Part shown: piece by piece, positions 10,225 to 19,552 of the stretch | How the letters are laid out: each line of letters opens with the position of its first letter | How positions within the stretch are numbered: position 1 is the stretch's first letter | Source: a virus | Taxonomy: Duplodnaviria > Heunggongvirae > Uroviricota > Caudoviricetes | Direction: 5' to 3' (one strand) | Virus record (IMG/VR): IMGVR_UViG_2585427757_000001 | Coordinates: 1 to 19,611 of that record | DNA length: 19,611 nucleotides | Position numbers and translations under genes: made by a program | The notes under the pieces: model-generated | Database searches by the model: none | Told to the model about the DNA's origin: nothing | Seen by the model: the letters and a program-made list of their open reading frames with translations, nothing else

Positions 10225-10373
10225 CGGCTGAATACCTCACTGATCGCTTCTTTGACTGCGCCAGCTACTGGCGCATTAATCCCTTCGAATTGCTGAATAT
10301 GCCGATCAGTGAAATTCCCTTGCTGGTCAGTCAGGCAAACAGGATAGAGCAGGAGAAACGCACACATGGCTGA
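10191..10373 (+). CDS. -1 frame extension of the tail assembly chaperone (GT-like fusion C-terminus)
   Basis: This ORF is in the -1 frame relative to 9955-10224, overlaps its last 34 nt, and ends 8 nt inside the tape measure gene. It has no convincing independent start (the track uses GTG). Confidence 0.55.
   Translation: MACGWVFSPGLTAEYLTDRFFDCASYWRINPFELLNMPISEIPLLVSQANRIEQEKRTHG
10204..10213 (+). promoter_or_regulatory. Candidate programmed -1 frameshift slip site (gggttttttc)
   Basis: A T6 run lies inside the overlap of the two chaperone frames. The zero-frame codons ggg ttt ttt can re-pair in the -1 frame (A-site ttt to ttt). Confidence 0.45.
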
Positions 10374-12198
10374 ATTTGAGCTTAAGGCGTTGATCACCGG
10401 TGTCGACAGGCTTTCTCCCGGGCTGTCGAAAATGCAAAAGAAAATCCGGGGATTTAAACGCCAGGCGGAAGAAGCGTCACAGGGTGGGCTGGCGCTTGGT
10501 GGAGGACTGGCAGCGGGGCTGACGCTTTCCCTGAAATCTTATGCCGATCAGGAAAACGCCGCTACCGGGCTGAAAGTCGCCATGATGGATGCGAACGGCG
10601 AGGTTGGAAAGAGCTTTCAGGACATCAATAAACTGGCTATTGGCCTGGGTAACCAGCTACCCGGTACAACGGCTGATTTCCAGAACATGATGCAGATGCT
10701 GGTGCGTCAGGGGATCCCGGCAGAAAACATTCTGGGTGGTGTGGGTAAAGCGACAGCTTATCTTGCGGTACAACTGAAAAAAACACCGGAAGCGGCTGCT
10801 GAGTTTGCTGCAAAGATGCAGGATGCTACCGGAACGGCGTCAGAAGACATGATGGGGCTGTTCGACACTATCCAGAAGGCGTTTTATCTGGGCGTTGACG
10901 ATACCAACATGTTGTCCTTCTTCACTAAAACCAGTTCTGTTCTGAAGATGGTGAACAAGGACGGTCTTCAGGCTGCACAGAGCCTTGCCCCCATCAGCGT
11001 CATGATGGATCAGATGGGGATGAACGGGGAGTCGGCAGGTAATGCCCTGCGAAAAGTTATCCAGTCCGGATTAAGTGTTAAGAAAATCAGGGACGTCAAT
11101 AAAGTCATGGCCCGCCAGAAACTCGGGGTACAGCTCGATTTTACTGACGGCAAAGGAAGTTTTGGCGGTCTTGATAACATGTTCAGGCAACTGGCAAAGT
11201 TGCGAAAACTGACCGACGTTAAGCGAACAGGCGTACTTAAGGCAATATTTGGTGATGATGCCGAAACCCTTCAGGTGGTCAATGCCCTGATCGATAAAGG
11301 AAAGGATGGCTACGATCAGATCCAGCAGAAGATGAATAAACAGGCCAGCCTGAATAAACGTGTTCAGGCTCAGCTTGGTACGCTGTCCAACCTGTGGGAG
11401 GCAATGACGGGGACCGCAACTAACGGTCTTGCAGCTATTGGCGGCGCATTTTCTGGTGACGCTAAAAATATCACGCAATGGCTGGGGGAGTTGGGGGAAA
11501 AATTCACGAAGTTTGCGGATGAAAATCCCCGGGTTATTCGCGGCGTCGTCGGGCTTGCTGCCGGTCTTGCGATTCTGAAACTGGGATTGATGGGCGTTGG
11601 CGGTGCCATCAGTATTGTCAGCAGGATCATGTCGATGACGCCGATTGGCATGATTGCGACGGCGATAGCCCTGGCTGCGGGATTAATTATCACTAACTGG
11701 GATGTTGTCGGACCTTATTTTAAGAAACTCTGGGAAACCATTGGTCCTTATTTTGAGGCTGGCTGGGAACTCCTTAAGAAAGTTTTTGCCTGGTCGCCGC
11801 TGGGGATGGTGATCAATAACTGGGGGCCGGTTGTTAAGTGGTTTCAGGATATGTGGGACAAGCTGAAGCCAATTATTGAGTGGTTTACCGACAGTTCCGG
11901 TGACACGGTCGATGCCATTAACTCTGCGCAGTGGGGCGCGGGTGCTTATGATGCTTATGGGACGGGAATACCGACGCGGGGATACACACCTTATCCGGCG
12001 GTGGATCCGGCTCAGTCAAACAACGCCTCCGATGCCACAGGCCCGAATCCCTTCATGATTAACAAAGCTATCGCGCCAAAAGTTGATGGCGAGATCAAGG
12101 TTTCATTTATGAATATGCCACCAGGTATGCGGGTTACGGAAACACGTTCCAGTGGCATTGATATTAATCACGATGTTGGGTACACCAGATTTAGGTAA
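10366..12198 (+). CDS. Tail tape measure protein
   Basis: 610-aa ORF with SD aggag (10351-10355). Long Ala/Gly/Leu-rich helical protein with a C-terminal hydrophobic segment and repeated W/GPYF motifs (GPYFKKLWETIGPYFEAGWELLKK...WGPVVKWFQDMWDKLK); position after the chaperone pair. Confidence 0.88.
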   Translation: MAEFELKALITGVDRLSPGLSKMQKKIRGFKRQAEEASQGGLALGGGLAAGLTLSLKSYADQENAATGLKVAMMDANGEVGKSFQDINKLAIGLGNQLPGTTADFQNMMQMLVRQGIPAENILGGVGKATAYLAVQLKKTPEAAAEFAAKMQDATGTASEDMMGLFDTIQKAFYLGVDDTNMLSFFTKTSSVLKMVNKDGLQAAQSLAPISVMMDQMGMNGESAGNALRKVIQSGLSVKKIRDVNKVMARQKLGVQLDFTDGKGSFGGLDNMFRQLAKLRKLTDVKRTGVLKAIFGDDAETLQVVNALIDKGKDGYDQIQQKMNKQASLNKRVQAQLGTLSNLWEAMTGTATNGLAAIGGAFSGDAKNITQWLGELGEKFTKFADENPRVIRGVVGLAAGLAILKLGLMGVGGAISIVSRIMSMTPIGMIATAIALAAGLIITNWDVVGPYFKKLWETIGPYFEAGWELLKKVFAWSPLGMVINNWGPVVKWFQDMWDKLKPIIEWFTDSSGDTVDAINSAQWGAGAYDAYGTGIPTRGYTPYPAVDPAQSNNASDATGPNPFMINKAIAPKVDGEIKVSFMNMPPGMRVTETRSSGIDINHDVGYTRFR

Positions 12199-12205
12199 AG
12201 ACGAA

Positions 12206-12227
12206 CAGGGAGGGCCGTCCCTCCCTG
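12206..12227. terminator. Perfect 9-bp GC-rich hairpin between convergent genes
   Basis: cagggaggg-ccgt-ccctccctg; it lies 8 nt after the tape measure stop and 3 nt after the antisense gene's stop. On the minus strand it is followed by ttcgtcttt. Confidence 0.5.
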
Positions 12228-12230
12228 AAC

Positions 12231-12677
12231 TTACTGTGCGAACACGCAATTTCGGCCTGATGGGGAGCCGACAATTCTGGACATTTTTTCGCAAATAACA
12301 GTTACTTGTTCTCCTTTTTTAAGAGCAGCAGCTGTTGATTTTTCAGAGTCTTGCATCTCCATTCTTGCTGGCATGAATTCATTTTCAGTTCTGAATTTAA
12401 TAATTATAGAGTCAGTAAAGTCCTTATCAATGGATTGTACGATACCTCTAACGGCGATTAATTTACCTTTTAACTGTTCATCGGTAGCGACTTCATTTTC
12501 TTCATACTCTTTAAACAGCTGTCGAGCAGTAGTGTTGTAGATTTCTTTTTGCGGTGCCGCAGCTTCCGTATCGGATGAGTATGAAGAATTAGAGCCTTTA
12601 TCGTTATTGCCTGCAAAATATCCAATAATCACCAACCCGATGAAAATATATAAAATCCATTTTAATAATTTCTTCAT
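12231..12677 (-). CDS. Membrane-anchored protein of unknown function with a putative OB-fold-like extracytoplasmic domain; antisense AT-rich moron
   Basis: 148-aa ORF on the opposite strand to the operon. Strong SD on the minus strand (aaggtga, 5 nt before ATG). N-terminal hydrophobic anchor (KKLLKWILYIFIGLVIIGYFAG) without a lipobox Cys, a Ser-rich linker, then a ~100-aa domain (KGKLIAVRGIVQSIDKDFTDSIIIKF...LKKGEQVTVICEK). The surrounding DNA is markedly AT-rich compared with the flanks. Confidence 0.7.
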   Translation of the reverse strand: MKKLLKWILYIFIGLVIIGYFAGNNDKGSNSSYSSDTEAAAPQKEIYNTTARQLFKEYEENEVATDEQLKGKLIAVRGIVQSIDKDFTDSIIIKFRTENEFMPARMEMQDSEKSTAAALKKGEQVTVICEKMSRIVGSPSGRNCVFAQ

Positions 12678-12739
12678 GTTATCACCTTAATGCTAATAAT
12701 TTATATAGTTACAAATGGTAATGGCTACCACTACAAATT

Positions 12740-14116
12740 ATGGCATTACCAGTAAATATTACTACTGATAATAAATATGGGACTTATATGACGTGGAAAG
12801 ACAGGCTTCAGGATGCGTCATTTCGCAGCGTGCCGTTTAAGGTTGAAGAAGAAAGTGCGGGAACCGGTCGCCGTGTGGAAACACATGAATACCCGAACCG
12901 CGACAAGCCCTATACCGAAGATCTGGGAAAAGTCACTTTCCGCCCGTCCATCACAGCTTATGTGGTGGGAGATGACTGCTTTGACCAGCGCGATCGCCTG
13001 ATTGAAGCGCTGAATAAACCCGGTCCCGGCACACTTGTCCACCCGACATATGGTGAGCTGAAAGTCTGTGTTGACGGGGAAGTTCGGGTCAGCACATCGA
13101 AAAGTGAAGGGCGTATTGTCCGCTTTGACCTGAAGTTTGTCGAAGCAGGAGAACTCTCTTACCCCACATCAGGTGCGGCGACGGCGCAGACGCTGATGTC
13201 ATCCTGTTCTGCACTGGATGACTGCATCAGTGACAGCTTCAGCGGTTTCAGTATCGATGGTGTGGCGGATTTCGTGCAGAACGACGTTATCGGTAATGCC
13301 AGCACAATGCTTGGGTATGTTTCTGATGCGATGAAAGTGGTGGATTCTGCCGTATCGGATGCCGCCAGGCTGTTGCAGGGGGATATCTCGGTACTTCTGC
13401 CGCCGCCATCCTCAGGCAAAAATTTCGTTGAGCAGGTGCAGAAAATGTGGCGTACCGGGAAACGCCTTTATGGTAACGCCAGCGACCTGGTCACCATGAT
13501 CAAAACGCTTTCCGGTGTCAGCCTCGGCAGCGATCTGCAACCGCGCGGCGTCTGGAAAACGGACAGTAAAACCACCGCCACGGCGACGCAGCAGCGTAAC
13601 GTGGTTGCCAGCACCCTTCGTACGACCGCAATCAGCGAAGCGGCGTATGCCGTCACCCGATTGCCTGCGCCAACAACTTCCGCGGTGATGCAGAATTCCG
13701 CAGTGGGGCAGGCAACAACACCCGCGCAGAGCACTGGCTGGCCTTCCGTCACGCATCCGGCACTGAACAATGCACCGGCGGTGAAAAACACGGTTGACCT
13801 GCCAACGTGGGAAGAACTGACCGACATTCGCGACACACTGAATACGGCAATTGATAAGGAGTTGTCCCGTACAACCAGTGATGCGCTGTTTCTGGCGCTG
13901 CGCCGGGTGAAAGCAGATCTGAATGCGGATATCAACACGCGCCTTGAACAGTCTGCACGGATCATTCAGCGCACACCGGATGAGGTTTTACCCGCGCTGG
14001 TGCTGGCGGCGACCTGGTTTGATAACGCGGCGCGTGACGCGGACATTATCCGGCGTAATGCCATTACGCATCCCGGCTTTGTGCCGGTGATCCCTCTGAA
14101 GGTGCCAGTGCAATGA
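12740..14116 (+). CDS. DNA circularization protein (Mu N-like)
   Basis: 458-aa ORF directly after the tape measure region, as in Mu-type tails. ATG 12740 lies in the AT-rich insert; the next in-frame ATG at 12788 (MTWKDRLQD...) is an alternative start. Confidence 0.8.
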   Translation: MALPVNITTDNKYGTYMTWKDRLQDASFRSVPFKVEEESAGTGRRVETHEYPNRDKPYTEDLGKVTFRPSITAYVVGDDCFDQRDRLIEALNKPGPGTLVHPTYGELKVCVDGEVRVSTSKSEGRIVRFDLKFVEAGELSYPTSGAATAQTLMSSCSALDDCISDSFSGFSIDGVADFVQNDVIGNASTMLGYVSDAMKVVDSAVSDAARLLQGDISVLLPPPSSGKNFVEQVQKMWRTGKRLYGNASDLVTMIKTLSGVSLGSDLQPRGVWKTDSKTTATATQQRNVVASTLRTTAISEAAYAVTRLPAPTTSAVMQNSAVGQATTPAQSTGWPSVTHPALNNAPAVKNTVDLPTWEELTDIRDTLNTAIDKELSRTTSDALFLALRRVKADLNADINTRLEQSARIIQRTPDEVLPALVLAATWFDNAARDADIIRRNAITHPGFVPVIPLKVPVQ

Positions 14117-18534: not shown

Positions 18535-18978
18535 ATGAACTCAGTATTCTTTTCACCCGGAAGTAAAAGTTTTTATCTGCAAGAATTGTTTCCAGAATAT
18601 GAGGATGCGGGAACGCTTCCTGATGATGTTATTGAAATTACCAGAGAAACATATGAGCAATTTCTTGGGCTGCATCCAGAAGGGAAAGAAATTGGCGCTG
18701 ACAGTTCAGGACGGCCAGTATGGATTAATTCCCCACCCCCTTCAAAAGAGGATGAGGTGTTGACGGCTGAAATGAAAAAAATATCTTTGGTTTCTGAAGT
18801 CAATACCTACATCAATACTCATCAGTGGCCTGGCAAAGCGGCGATTGGTCGTCTGAAAAGTGAGGAACTGGCGCAATATAATTTGTGGCTGGATTATCTG
18901 GACGCACTGGAACTGGTTGATACCTCCAGTGCTCCAGATATTGAATGGCCTACGCCTCCGGCAGTTCAGGCCAGATGA
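18535..18978 (+). CDS. Tail fibre assembly protein (Tfa)
   Basis: 147-aa ORF directly after the fibre gene; C-terminus (...LDYLDALELVDTSSAPDIEWPTPP...) shows the Tfa-type motif. Confidence 0.8.
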   Translation: MNSVFFSPGSKSFYLQELFPEYEDAGTLPDDVIEITRETYEQFLGLHPEGKEIGADSSGRPVWINSPPPSKEDEVLTAEMKKISLVSEVNTYINTHQWPGKAAIGRLKSEELAQYNLWLDYLDALELVDTSSAPDIEWPTPPAVQAR

Positions 18979-19552
18979 CATCCGGCGCGGTGCTGGTATC
19001 TGTTGCCGTCACCGTGTCAATGTAATCCAGCACAGCGTTAAGGCGAGTGATTTCTGCTTGCGTCAGCTGCCGCCCGGCCTGTAATTTCAGCTGAATCAGA
19101 CTGATGGAAGCCATAGCAGCATCAATCAGCGACTGGCGCTGTGCTTCTGCCACGTCTACTGCGGCGCTATGCTGTGCCTCAGTATCGGTCACCCATTTCT
19201 CACCATCCCATTTATCGAATGGCGTTAACGGGGCGATAGTAGTTGTATTTTCAGGGTAATCACCCGGAGCTGTGATTTCTTTTGATTCTCCTGTTTCAGT
19301 GCTATATACCGTTTCACCGCGATGATCTGGCACATATTCCCATGAGTTAAAATCTGCAGAACGGCAAATTGCATAACCAGCTTTATATGAGCCAGGAGCA
19401 TCTAAACAGGAACATGCCGGAATACCGACGCCAACCGCAAGATATTCAGTTGATGTGGAAATATATTCCCGCGTTTCACCATCATAATTATAAATGGTAA
19501 TGTCTCCCGCTTTTATGGCAATGAGTTCGTTATTTAATACGGCTTTATTCAT
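18950..19552 (-). CDS. Second tail fibre assembly protein, inverted orientation (Tfa')
   Basis: 200-aa minus-strand ORF with SD on the minus strand (gaggg, 6 nt before ATG). Its C-terminus (...LDYIDTVTATDTSTAPDVIWPELPEA) parallels the + strand Tfa C-terminus; the two genes converge and overlap by 29 bp (18950-18978). Confidence 0.8.
   Translation of the reverse strand: MNKAVLNNELIAIKAGDITIYNYDGETREYISTSTEYLAVGVGIPACSCLDAPGSYKAGYAICRSADFNSWEYVPDHRGETVYSTETGESKEITAPGDYPENTTTIAPLTPFDKWDGEKWVTDTEAQHSAAVDVAEAQRQSLIDAAMASISLIQLKLQAGRQLTQAEITRLNAVLDYIDTVTATDTSTAPDVIWPELPEA

Follow-up and report, generated by a model that had tools for sequence, protein, structure and literature searches.

What does a small gene, antisense to the late tail operon in which an SfV/SfII-type prophage (Mu-type tail) of E. 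coli carries it, contribute to the phage or to its lysogen? The gene (12231..12677, minus strand, ATG start) encodes 148 aa plus stop, and its product is found in RefSeq as WP_000734912.1 under the name 'OB-fold protein'. Coordinates refer to the window, i.e., the whole 19,611-nt stretch of DNA that was analyzed. An initial annotation had described the gene as a moron whose membrane-anchored product might exclude superinfecting phages, mask a receptor or serve as other lysogenic-conversion cargo, and our literature search found no study of this protein.

A variable cargo slot in the late tail operon

The moron gene lies within a 582-bp AT-rich cassette (12202..12783), delimited by blastn junctions, sequence and base composition. 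The left flank is the tail tape-measure gene (TMP; 10366..12198, plus strand), which matches PF10145, and the right flank is a Mu-N-like gene for a DNA-circularization/tail protein (N; 12788..14116, plus strand, start according to PGAP), which matches PF07157. These profile matches confirm the position between the two genes, antisense to the operon, that had been read from the sequence. The AT-rich island is equally evident, as GC content is 0.35-0.37 across 12250-12850 compared to 0.51-0.60 in both flanks. The gene had also been taken as the only one of the window outside virion assembly, and this holds. It is not the only minus-strand gene, as a tail-fibre assembly gene lies on that strand at 18950-19552.

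Comparison of related prophages revealed a variable slot, which is empty in some and holds different cargo in others. It is empty in SfII, SfV and SfI, and an empty slot contains only a terminator; in SfII, the blastn junctions leave 53 bp with a plus-strand rho-independent terminator where the cassette sits. In phage SKA5, the same position holds 681 bp of different cargo. The flanks shared with these four phages are 95-97% identical. Of the 49 E. coli relatives that were sampled, 28 have an empty slot and the remainder hold other AT-rich cargo. Besides the moron, at least four types of cargo are found in the slot. They are small and mostly envelope-targeted, and include a 170-aa secreted protein, a 225-aa lipoprotein, a 145-aa protein with two TM segments and a bPH_1 protein. 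The junction between the TMP and N genes (TMP|N) in SfV/SfII-like prophages is thus a cargo hotspot. About 20% of complete E. coli genomes have this junction, and about 1.5% carry the moron cassette itself; S19-651 and STEC005 are examples of lysogens. That close relatives either have or lack a self-contained cassette between the same conserved neighbours, together with atypical base composition and a terminator hairpin, bears out the designation as a moron, its promoter being a conserved candidate.

The last ~25 codons of the tape-measure gene co-vary with the slot cargo. The idea that the moron is functionally coupled to the C-terminus of TMP was considered and rejected, since TMP of the type in the window also accompanies an empty slot, with differences confined to the last ~25 residues. 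Recombination with a junction in the 3' end of the TMP gene explains the co-variation sufficiently.

The moron gene and its same-slot alleles differ with pN of about 0.16 and pS of 0.68-0.80 (saturated), a pattern indicating that the gene is under purifying selection. In prophages of Buttiauxella and Scandinavium the gene co-diverges with its flanks, and in one E. coli lineage the allele has been swapped (P0008 type), giving 71% amino acid identity within flanks that are 98-99% identical. The gene has also been lost: a 143-bp deletion in E. coli 042 and relatives takes the candidate promoter, Shine-Dalgarno (SD) sequence and transmembrane (TM) segment, and two IS1 insertions are further cases of loss. 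Selection is therefore not universal.

Expression signals of the cassette

The strong SD sequence ascribed to the gene is AAGGTG (12683..12688, minus strand), located 5 nt 5' of the ATG, and comparison of upstream regions shows that AGGTGAT is retained in the remaining slot alleles. A terminator-like GC-rich hairpin (12206..12227, minus strand) begins 4 nt beyond the stop codon, where it had been reported. Read from 12227 to 12206, it has a 9-bp stem with 7 GC pairs and a loop of 4, followed by TTCGTCTTTA, and the T-rich tail is present on the minus strand only.

The region 5' of the gene contains a candidate extended -10 promoter, TGcCATAAT (12737..12745, minus strand; TGCCATAAT), ~60 nt upstream of the ATG. 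Across five slot alleles, TGC-ATAA-TT is the sole conserved block in otherwise diverged upstream regions. A sigma-70 consensus scan of the 110-bp region upstream of the moron gene found no canonical promoter and manual inspection of the upstream region found no acceptable -35, so the promoter call rests on conservation across alleles. With this candidate element, the SD sequence, the open reading frame and the terminator-like hairpin, the cassette may form an independent transcription unit, and it may be expressed in lysogens.

Protein architecture and topology

The protein begins with a putative signal-anchor (codons 2-22; 12612..12674, minus strand), which comprises a basic stretch (KK..K) and a hydrophobic helix and is modeled by AF2 as a helix at residues 2-22. 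Residues 1-128 contain no Cys on inspection of the sequence; the N-terminal region therefore has no lipobox, and the single membrane anchor stands as originally described. The anchor is followed by a disordered Ser/Asn-rich linker (codons 23-45; 12543..12611, minus strand), identified from the AF2 model and the family alignment, with pLDDT <50 at residues 25-39. This agrees with the Ser-rich linker noted before, and both its sequence and its length differ across family members. The remainder is the OB-fold domain (codons 46-148; 12234..12542, minus strand) with an NEVA(T)D motif and the invariant cysteines C129 and C144. The AF2 model, fold comparison and a match to PF12869 all uphold the OB fold that had been suggested from the beta-rich pattern. 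This order of N-terminal anchor, low-complexity linker and single OB barrel is common to PF12869 and PHROG 8545.

The topology is predicted to be N-in/C-out with a periplasmic OB domain. This prediction draws on the charge of the N-terminus (+3, against -2 for residues 23-45), on four relatives in which a lipobox replaces the anchor, and on the invariant Cys pair, as exactly two Cys lie within the OB domain in 81 of 83 homologues. The domain is acidic (net charge -1, pI 5.5) and probably disulfide-bonded.

Relationship to Sie2009 and other OB-fold proteins

The moron protein matches PF12869 (tRNA_anti-like) in Pfam over residues 2-130 with an E-value of 2.9e-19 and 69.5 bits, where the curated cutoff is 23.5 bits, and PHROG 8545 ('superinfection exclusion Sie-like') over residues 1-146 (1.5e-49). 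The same two families are matched by Sie2009, the orf2 product of Lactococcus phage Tuc2009 that is identical to SieLC3 (PHROG 8545, 7.4e-79; PF12869, 4.6e-11). An hhalign comparison of the enterobacterial profile with Sie2009 gave 97.6% probability (E 2.6e-12, 128 columns), and the OB domain alone gave 94.9% (E 4.1e-8, 82 columns). By these profile comparisons, the moron protein is a distant relative of Sie2009 and a member of the PF12869/PHROG 8545 family. The identity is about 27% over aligned columns, and with such remote homology the function may have diverged. Members of PF12869 are mostly uncharacterized.

The two proteins have in common a basic N-terminus, one TM helix and an acidic single OB domain, and the Ser/Thr-rich linker of Sie2009 resembles the low-complexity linker of the moron protein. 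Both are prophage cargo. They are of similar size (148 aa for the moron protein, 173 aa for Sie2009). The conserved Cys pair is lacking in Sie2009. As the host of Sie2009 is Gram-positive, its domain faces the cell wall and not the periplasm. Of the two, exclusion has been demonstrated for Sie2009 only.

Searches of PDB sequences with the single sequence and with the profile returned nothing meaningful. The nearest fold to the moron OB domain is 3F1Z, a structural genomics entry from Klebsiella pneumoniae described as a 'putative nucleic acid-binding lipoprotein', which shares 16-20% identity with the moron protein, was missed by sequence and profile searches and was recovered by fold comparison only. 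In contrast to this lipoprotein, the moron protein is TM-anchored. Outside the family, the closest folds are OB domains that bind ssDNA or tRNA. The NCBIfam search gave only a sub-threshold match to SpoIIIAG.

A further likeness, drawn from published descriptions, is to TcdC of C. difficile, the other studied relative that was found, which shares a membrane anchor and a PF12869-type OB domain with the moron protein. HHpred placed the C-terminal OB domain of TcdC in PF12869, and experiments located this domain outside the cell; Lactobacillus phages A2 and Lrm1 carry TcdC-like genes, in each case between cI and int (PMC3575817; 10.1101/872283). However, TcdC has an additional coiled-coil dimerization segment, and its role is discussed in terms of regulating toxin expression; it is not known to act in phage exclusion.

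Genomic context of relatives

Relatives in other phages usually lie just downstream of an immunity repressor. Among 50 evaluable viral loci outside the slot, 32 are preceded by an immunity-repressor gene in the same orientation, and in 10 of these 32 the gap between repressor and homologue is just 14-31 nt. In phage Carl1 the order is repressor, hypothetical gene, homologue, terminator. The Sie2009 gene likewise lies between repressor and integrase, in contrast to the moron gene, which is antisense in a tail operon. In decayed prophage immunity regions of Pantoea and Pectobacterium, a homologue is kept beside a broken cI. These copies could be read as housekeeping genes, but this was rejected because the fragmented cI directly precedes them. 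The great majority of family contexts are immunity regions of prophages or morons in tail operons.

Proposed superinfection exclusion and alternative explanations

We lean, with somewhat better than even confidence, towards the moron product being a prophage-expressed inner-membrane superinfection-exclusion factor that acts in the periplasm and belongs to the PF12869/PHROG 8545 family together with Sie2009. The exclusion suggested at the outset thereby gains support from homology (Sie2009, PHROG 8545 and hhalign) and from the repressor-linked contexts of relatives. Given the relationship to Sie2009, the moron would most likely protect the lysogen by keeping the DNA of other phages from entering it. 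The protein would be made in the lysogen and be bitopic, with a short basic N-terminus in the cytoplasm and a single TM helix, from which ~25 flexible linker residues lead to the acidic OB domain on the periplasmic side of the inner membrane. In this position, it could hinder incoming phages between adsorption and DNA entry, either because it binds a component of the tail tip, the tape measure or the ejection apparatus, or because it obstructs an entry site in the inner membrane. Activity, target and range are in this respect inferred. As the envelopes of Gram-negative bacteria and Lactococcus differ, the molecular target cannot be the same as that of Sie2009. By position and function, there is an analogy with gp15 of HK97, an inner-membrane exclusion moron that adjoins the TMP gene in a temperate phage of E. 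coli, as here; this likeness is one of analogy only, and no search linked gp15 to the moron protein. HK97 gp15 is a much smaller protein that is not known to contain an OB domain.

The protein might instead be lysogenic-conversion cargo unrelated to phage exclusion, i.e., a periplasmic OB protein that alters envelope physiology through stress tolerance, oligosaccharide or lipid binding, or immunity to a periplasm-acting toxin. We regard this as unlikely. The only family member found with a demonstrated phenotype is the exclusion protein Sie2009, the immunity-region and tail-operon contexts described above point away from such a role, and searches of Pfam, NCBIfam and PADLOC linked the protein to no particular family of stress or immunity proteins.

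The initial annotation had also offered Cor and Llp as analogues. Cor (phi80/N15) and Llp (T5) are small envelope proteins that are encoded near tail genes and exclude superinfecting phages, and both are outer-membrane lipoproteins that mask and inactivate FhuA. The moron protein is likewise a small envelope protein from a tail-gene region, and a minority of its family are lipoproteins, which would suit masking of a receptor or a block of adsorption. However, without a lipobox the moron protein would be expected to remain in the inner membrane, out of reach of receptors in the outer membrane, and its Pfam and PHROG matches at E<=1 include no family annotated as Cor or Llp. Furthermore, Sie2009-type lactococcal systems are described as stopping DNA injection (PMC7693887), and Sie2009 itself as blocking injection rather than masking a receptor (PMC7693887; PMC10883804). 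The analogy with Cor and Llp thus fails for want of both lipobox and homology, and receptor masking appears quite improbable.

A cytoplasmic counterpart of this layout is found in AbiP and PdpSau, which have a superficially similar arrangement of TM segment and OB domain, the latter binding nucleic acids (PMC10127798), and the moron product could correspondingly be a membrane-anchored Abi protein or, alternatively, bind nucleic acids in the periplasm and so trap the DNA of incoming phages. Binding of G-quadruplex DNA by the TcdC OB domain in vitro (PMC3575817) and the ssDNA- or tRNA-binding function of the closest non-family folds would fit such a role. Nevertheless, we consider it very improbable. 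The predicted topology is opposite, with the domain in the periplasm as judged from charges, lipoprotein relatives, the Cys pair and the extracellular TcdC (10.1101/872283), and PADLOC returned no match for the moron protein, Abi systems included. [quoted passage not shown] Finally, an accessory that the phage needs for its life cycle or virion assembly, as the place inside the tail operon beside the tape-measure gene and the co-varying TMP C-terminal ~25 residues might suggest, is highly improbable for an AT-rich gene antisense to the late operon that is missing from viable SfII, SfV, SfI and SKA5 with 95-97% identical flanks and has relatives in immunity regions.

Implications for phage exclusion in E. 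coli

The Sie2009 family is already known, and its Gram-negative representatives are uncharacterized. We tentatively propose, while regarding it as rather doubtful, that membrane-anchored PF12869 OB proteins are one ancient superinfection-exclusion module of temperate phages that spans Firmicutes and Proteobacteria and, from its place on the outside of the cytoplasmic membrane, targets a conserved part of the genome-delivery machinery, e.g., the tape measure or tail tip. Sie2009 and the phage TcdC-like genes would represent its Firmicutes side, and the E. coli moron and the homologues in P2-like, 186-like and lambda-like immunity regions its Proteobacteria side. If so, C. difficile TcdC would be a relic exclusion protein of a phage-derived PaLoc, and the position of the moron between TMP and N, tail proteins thought to enter the envelope, would reflect linkage to the target.

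If exclusion by the moron protein itself is confirmed, E. coli gains a member of the Sie2009 family that is amenable to genetics. How this family blocks DNA entry has been a question since 2002, and a Gram-negative member with a periplasmic OB domain would enable escape-mutant and structural work on this block. The TMP|N hotspot offers a compact place to seek further exclusion or conversion factors, and exclusion factors such as the one proposed here affect the host range of phages in therapy.

The OB-fold gene and its signals

The window covers the late (head and tail) part of a temperate E. coli prophage that is SfV/SfI/SfII-like and has a contractile tail of Mu type. The stretch 11500-13500 has matches at 95-99% in 1,096 of the 5,426 complete E. 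coli genomes, as well as in the Shigella phages SfI, SfII and SfV. The antisense gene described in the initial annotation is real, as are its AT-rich setting and its signals. The 148-aa ORF (12231-12677, minus strand) lies between genes for a tape-measure protein (TMP; Pfam PF10145) and a Mu-N-like DNA-circularisation protein (N; PF07157), and GC is 0.35-0.37 over 12250-12850 compared to 0.51-0.60 in the flanks. On the minus strand, a strong SD (AAGGTG) precedes the ATG by 5 nt, and a GC-rich 9-bp hairpin (12227-12206), whose T-rich tail is confined to that strand, follows 4 nt past the stop. A canonical sigma-70 promoter was not detected around the ORF. Upstream of it, five slot alleles show little conservation apart from one common block, TGC-ATAA-TT, about 60 nt before the ATG, which reads TGCCATAAT in the window (12745-12737, minus strand) and TGCTATAAA in other slot alleles. 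Judged by its conservation, this block looks like an extended -10 element and is a candidate promoter.

At the end of the window, two PF02413 tail-fibre assembly genes are convergent and overlapping (18535-18978, plus; 18950-19552, minus). In L001, the closest genome, this part is arranged differently and a frameshifted recombinase gene comes after it. This suggests an invertible tail-fibre segment like the G segment of Mu; within the window, the only inverted repeat detected is a weak one of 16 nt.

Family, architecture and topology

The OB fold that had been guessed from the sequence is borne out by a match to PF12869 (tRNA_anti-like; 69.5 bits, cutoff 23.5) and by the RefSeq product name, 'OB-fold protein'. 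Family, fold and a 'Sie-like' label are already public through Pfam, PHROGs and RefSeq, and our literature search turned up no publication about this protein or about any family member from Gram-negatives. The named ones among 90 homologues all come from Enterobacterales genera (Escherichia, Salmonella, Buttiauxella, Scandinavium, Pantoea, Serratia, Erwinia, Pectobacterium and Dryocola). Among the invariant positions are the cysteines C129 and C144 and, in the capping helices, a NEVA-D motif; of 83 homologues exceeding 130 aa, 81 have a domain with exactly two cysteines. Four of the 90 carry a lipobox instead of the TM anchor. Because the N-terminus is +3, some relatives are lipoproteins, the cysteine pair is conserved and 3F1Z is a lipoprotein, the features point to a bitopic inner-membrane protein, N-in/C-out, with a periplasmic domain that is probably disulfide-bonded. 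The acidity of the domain (pI 5.5, net charge -1) does not favour binding of nucleic acids.

Cargo turnover at the TMP|N junction

Alignment with relatives places the cassette junctions at 12202 and 12783. In place of these 582 bp, SfII has 53 bp holding only a plus-strand rho-independent terminator, while the SKA5 phage has 681 bp that carry an AT-rich gene for an unrelated 170-aa protein bearing a signal peptide (PHROG 8976, a family of unknown function). In an evenly spaced sample from 1,104 matching E. coli records, 49 rows had both flanks matched. The slot was empty in 28 and held the SKA5-type protein in 12, the OB-fold gene in four (one with a deletion), a 125-aa bPH_1 protein in two, a 225-aa lipoprotein in two and an antisense 145-aa protein with two TM segments in one. 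All cargoes are AT-rich (GC 0.31-0.42). SfV/SfII-like prophages have a cargo hotspot at the TMP|N junction (slot 12199-12787 in the window), and the four cargoes other than the OB gene have no assigned function (L002 2281-2793, L017 955-1332, L018 990-1667, L019 872-1309 and L020 930-1607).

TMP has a mosaic C-terminus of ~85 residues (window 11940-12198) that exists in long and short forms. Its last ~25 residues co-vary with the slot cargo; the left recombination junction therefore lies inside the TMP gene. Empty-slot phages have a plus-strand intrinsic terminator between TMP and N, within the late operon (L003 2215-2253). In the window it is replaced by the hairpin at 12206-12227, T-tailed on the minus strand only, so that the variants may differ in the read-through that their downstream tail genes need.

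The OB cassette occurs in 79 of the 5,426 complete E. coli genomes, 72 at ≥99% identity and seven as a ~73% identical allele. It also decays. E. coli 042 and several other genomes have lost 143 bp between short repeats (equivalent to window ~12609-12751; L014 2501-2946 in E. coli 042), and with them the upstream/promoter region, SD, start codon and TM helix; IS1 insertions interrupt the gene in two further genomes. RefSeq still annotates the deleted 042 allele as a 128-aa 'OB-fold protein'.

Relatives and selection

Buttiauxella and Scandinavium prophages carry the OB gene in the same slot and antisense orientation, at 71-72% amino acid identity, while TMP and N stand at 74-84%. Such similar divergence of gene and flanks indicates that the gene has long occupied the slot. 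One E. coli lineage has a 71% allele within flanks 98-99% identical, which indicates cassette exchange. Throughout the slot alleles compared, pN is ~0.16 and pS 0.68-0.80 (saturated), and the gene is therefore under purifying selection.

A scan of IMG/VR yielded relatives in 102 viral contigs; 80 were retained, 25 of them with the TMP|N arrangement. Among the 55 non-slot loci, 50 were evaluable, and in 32 an immunity-repressor-type gene (186-type CI, XRE-HTH or HTH+S24) lies within 2.5 kb upstream, on the same strand. The loci are non-independent, yet they cover four repressor clusters of three types. The gap to the homologue is just 14-31 nt in 10 of the 32. Burkholderia phage Carl1 has the order repressor, hypothetical gene, homologue, terminator, and a Klebsiella phage has a Zn-ribbon/TM/OB version antisense amid baseplate genes. 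Fragments of a 186-type CI repressor gene directly precede apparently chromosomal copies in Pantoea and Pectobacterium (L009/L010 7006-7973; L025 5848-6114), which are decayed prophage immunity regions that have retained the OB gene. The Pantoea remnant also retains a 267-aa multi-TM gene downstream. In three IMG/VR loci (L081, L084 and L086), the homologue adjoins a convergent gene for a ~505-aa AAA_15/AAA_21 ATPase, a type common in defence systems, and a ~190-aa gene with no Pfam match is also present.

Relation to Sie2009 and proposed function

The OB protein falls in phrog_8545, 'superinfection exclusion Sie-like' (1.5e-49, PHROGs), a label that originates from orf2 of the Lactococcus phage Tuc2009, i.e., Sie2009. 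Sie2009 itself matches both phrog_8545 (7.4e-79) and PF12869 (4.6e-11). The enterobacterial family profile aligns to Sie2009 at 97.6% probability (E 2.6e-12, 128 columns), and still at 94.9% (E 4e-8, 82 columns) without TM and linker. Lactococcal Sie systems are described as preventing DNA injection of heterologous phages (PMC7693887). A second studied relative is TcdC of C. difficile, assigned to PF12869 by HHpred (PMC3575817), whose C-terminal OB domain was demonstrated to be extracellular; TcdC-like genes also lie between cI and int in Lactobacillus phages (bioRxiv 10.1101/872283). A 352-aa viral 'Host cell surface-exposed lipoprotein' (BFVD A0A8S5U313) matches the OB model (Foldseek E 1.5e-7); its name resembles descriptions of Ltp exclusion lipoproteins, and it may combine two exclusion-type modules.

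The exclusion function proposed in the initial annotation is thus supported by homology and context, by way of Sie2009 and not by way of the FhuA-masking lipoproteins Cor and Llp that it named. The best-supported reading, which we consider somewhat probable, is a block to phage genome entry after adsorption. Lysogenic conversion unrelated to phage, or toxin immunity, is possible though rather unlikely. Receptor masking of the Cor/Llp type is improbable, as the OB protein has no lipobox and matches no Cor- or Llp-annotated family in Pfam or PHROGs. Abortive infection of the AbiP/PdpSau type, or a DNA trap, is slightly more doubtful still, given that the domain is acidic and its predicted topology is N-in/C-out (PMC10127798). 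Participation in virion assembly is highly improbable, since close relatives without the cassette are viable. Under the favoured block to genome entry, the lysogen would make the OB protein and anchor it in the inner membrane, where a ~25-residue tether would hold the domain at the periplasmic face. This is where tape-measure and ejection proteins act, and the protein may there block genome entry of adsorbed phages in the manner of Sie2009-type systems.
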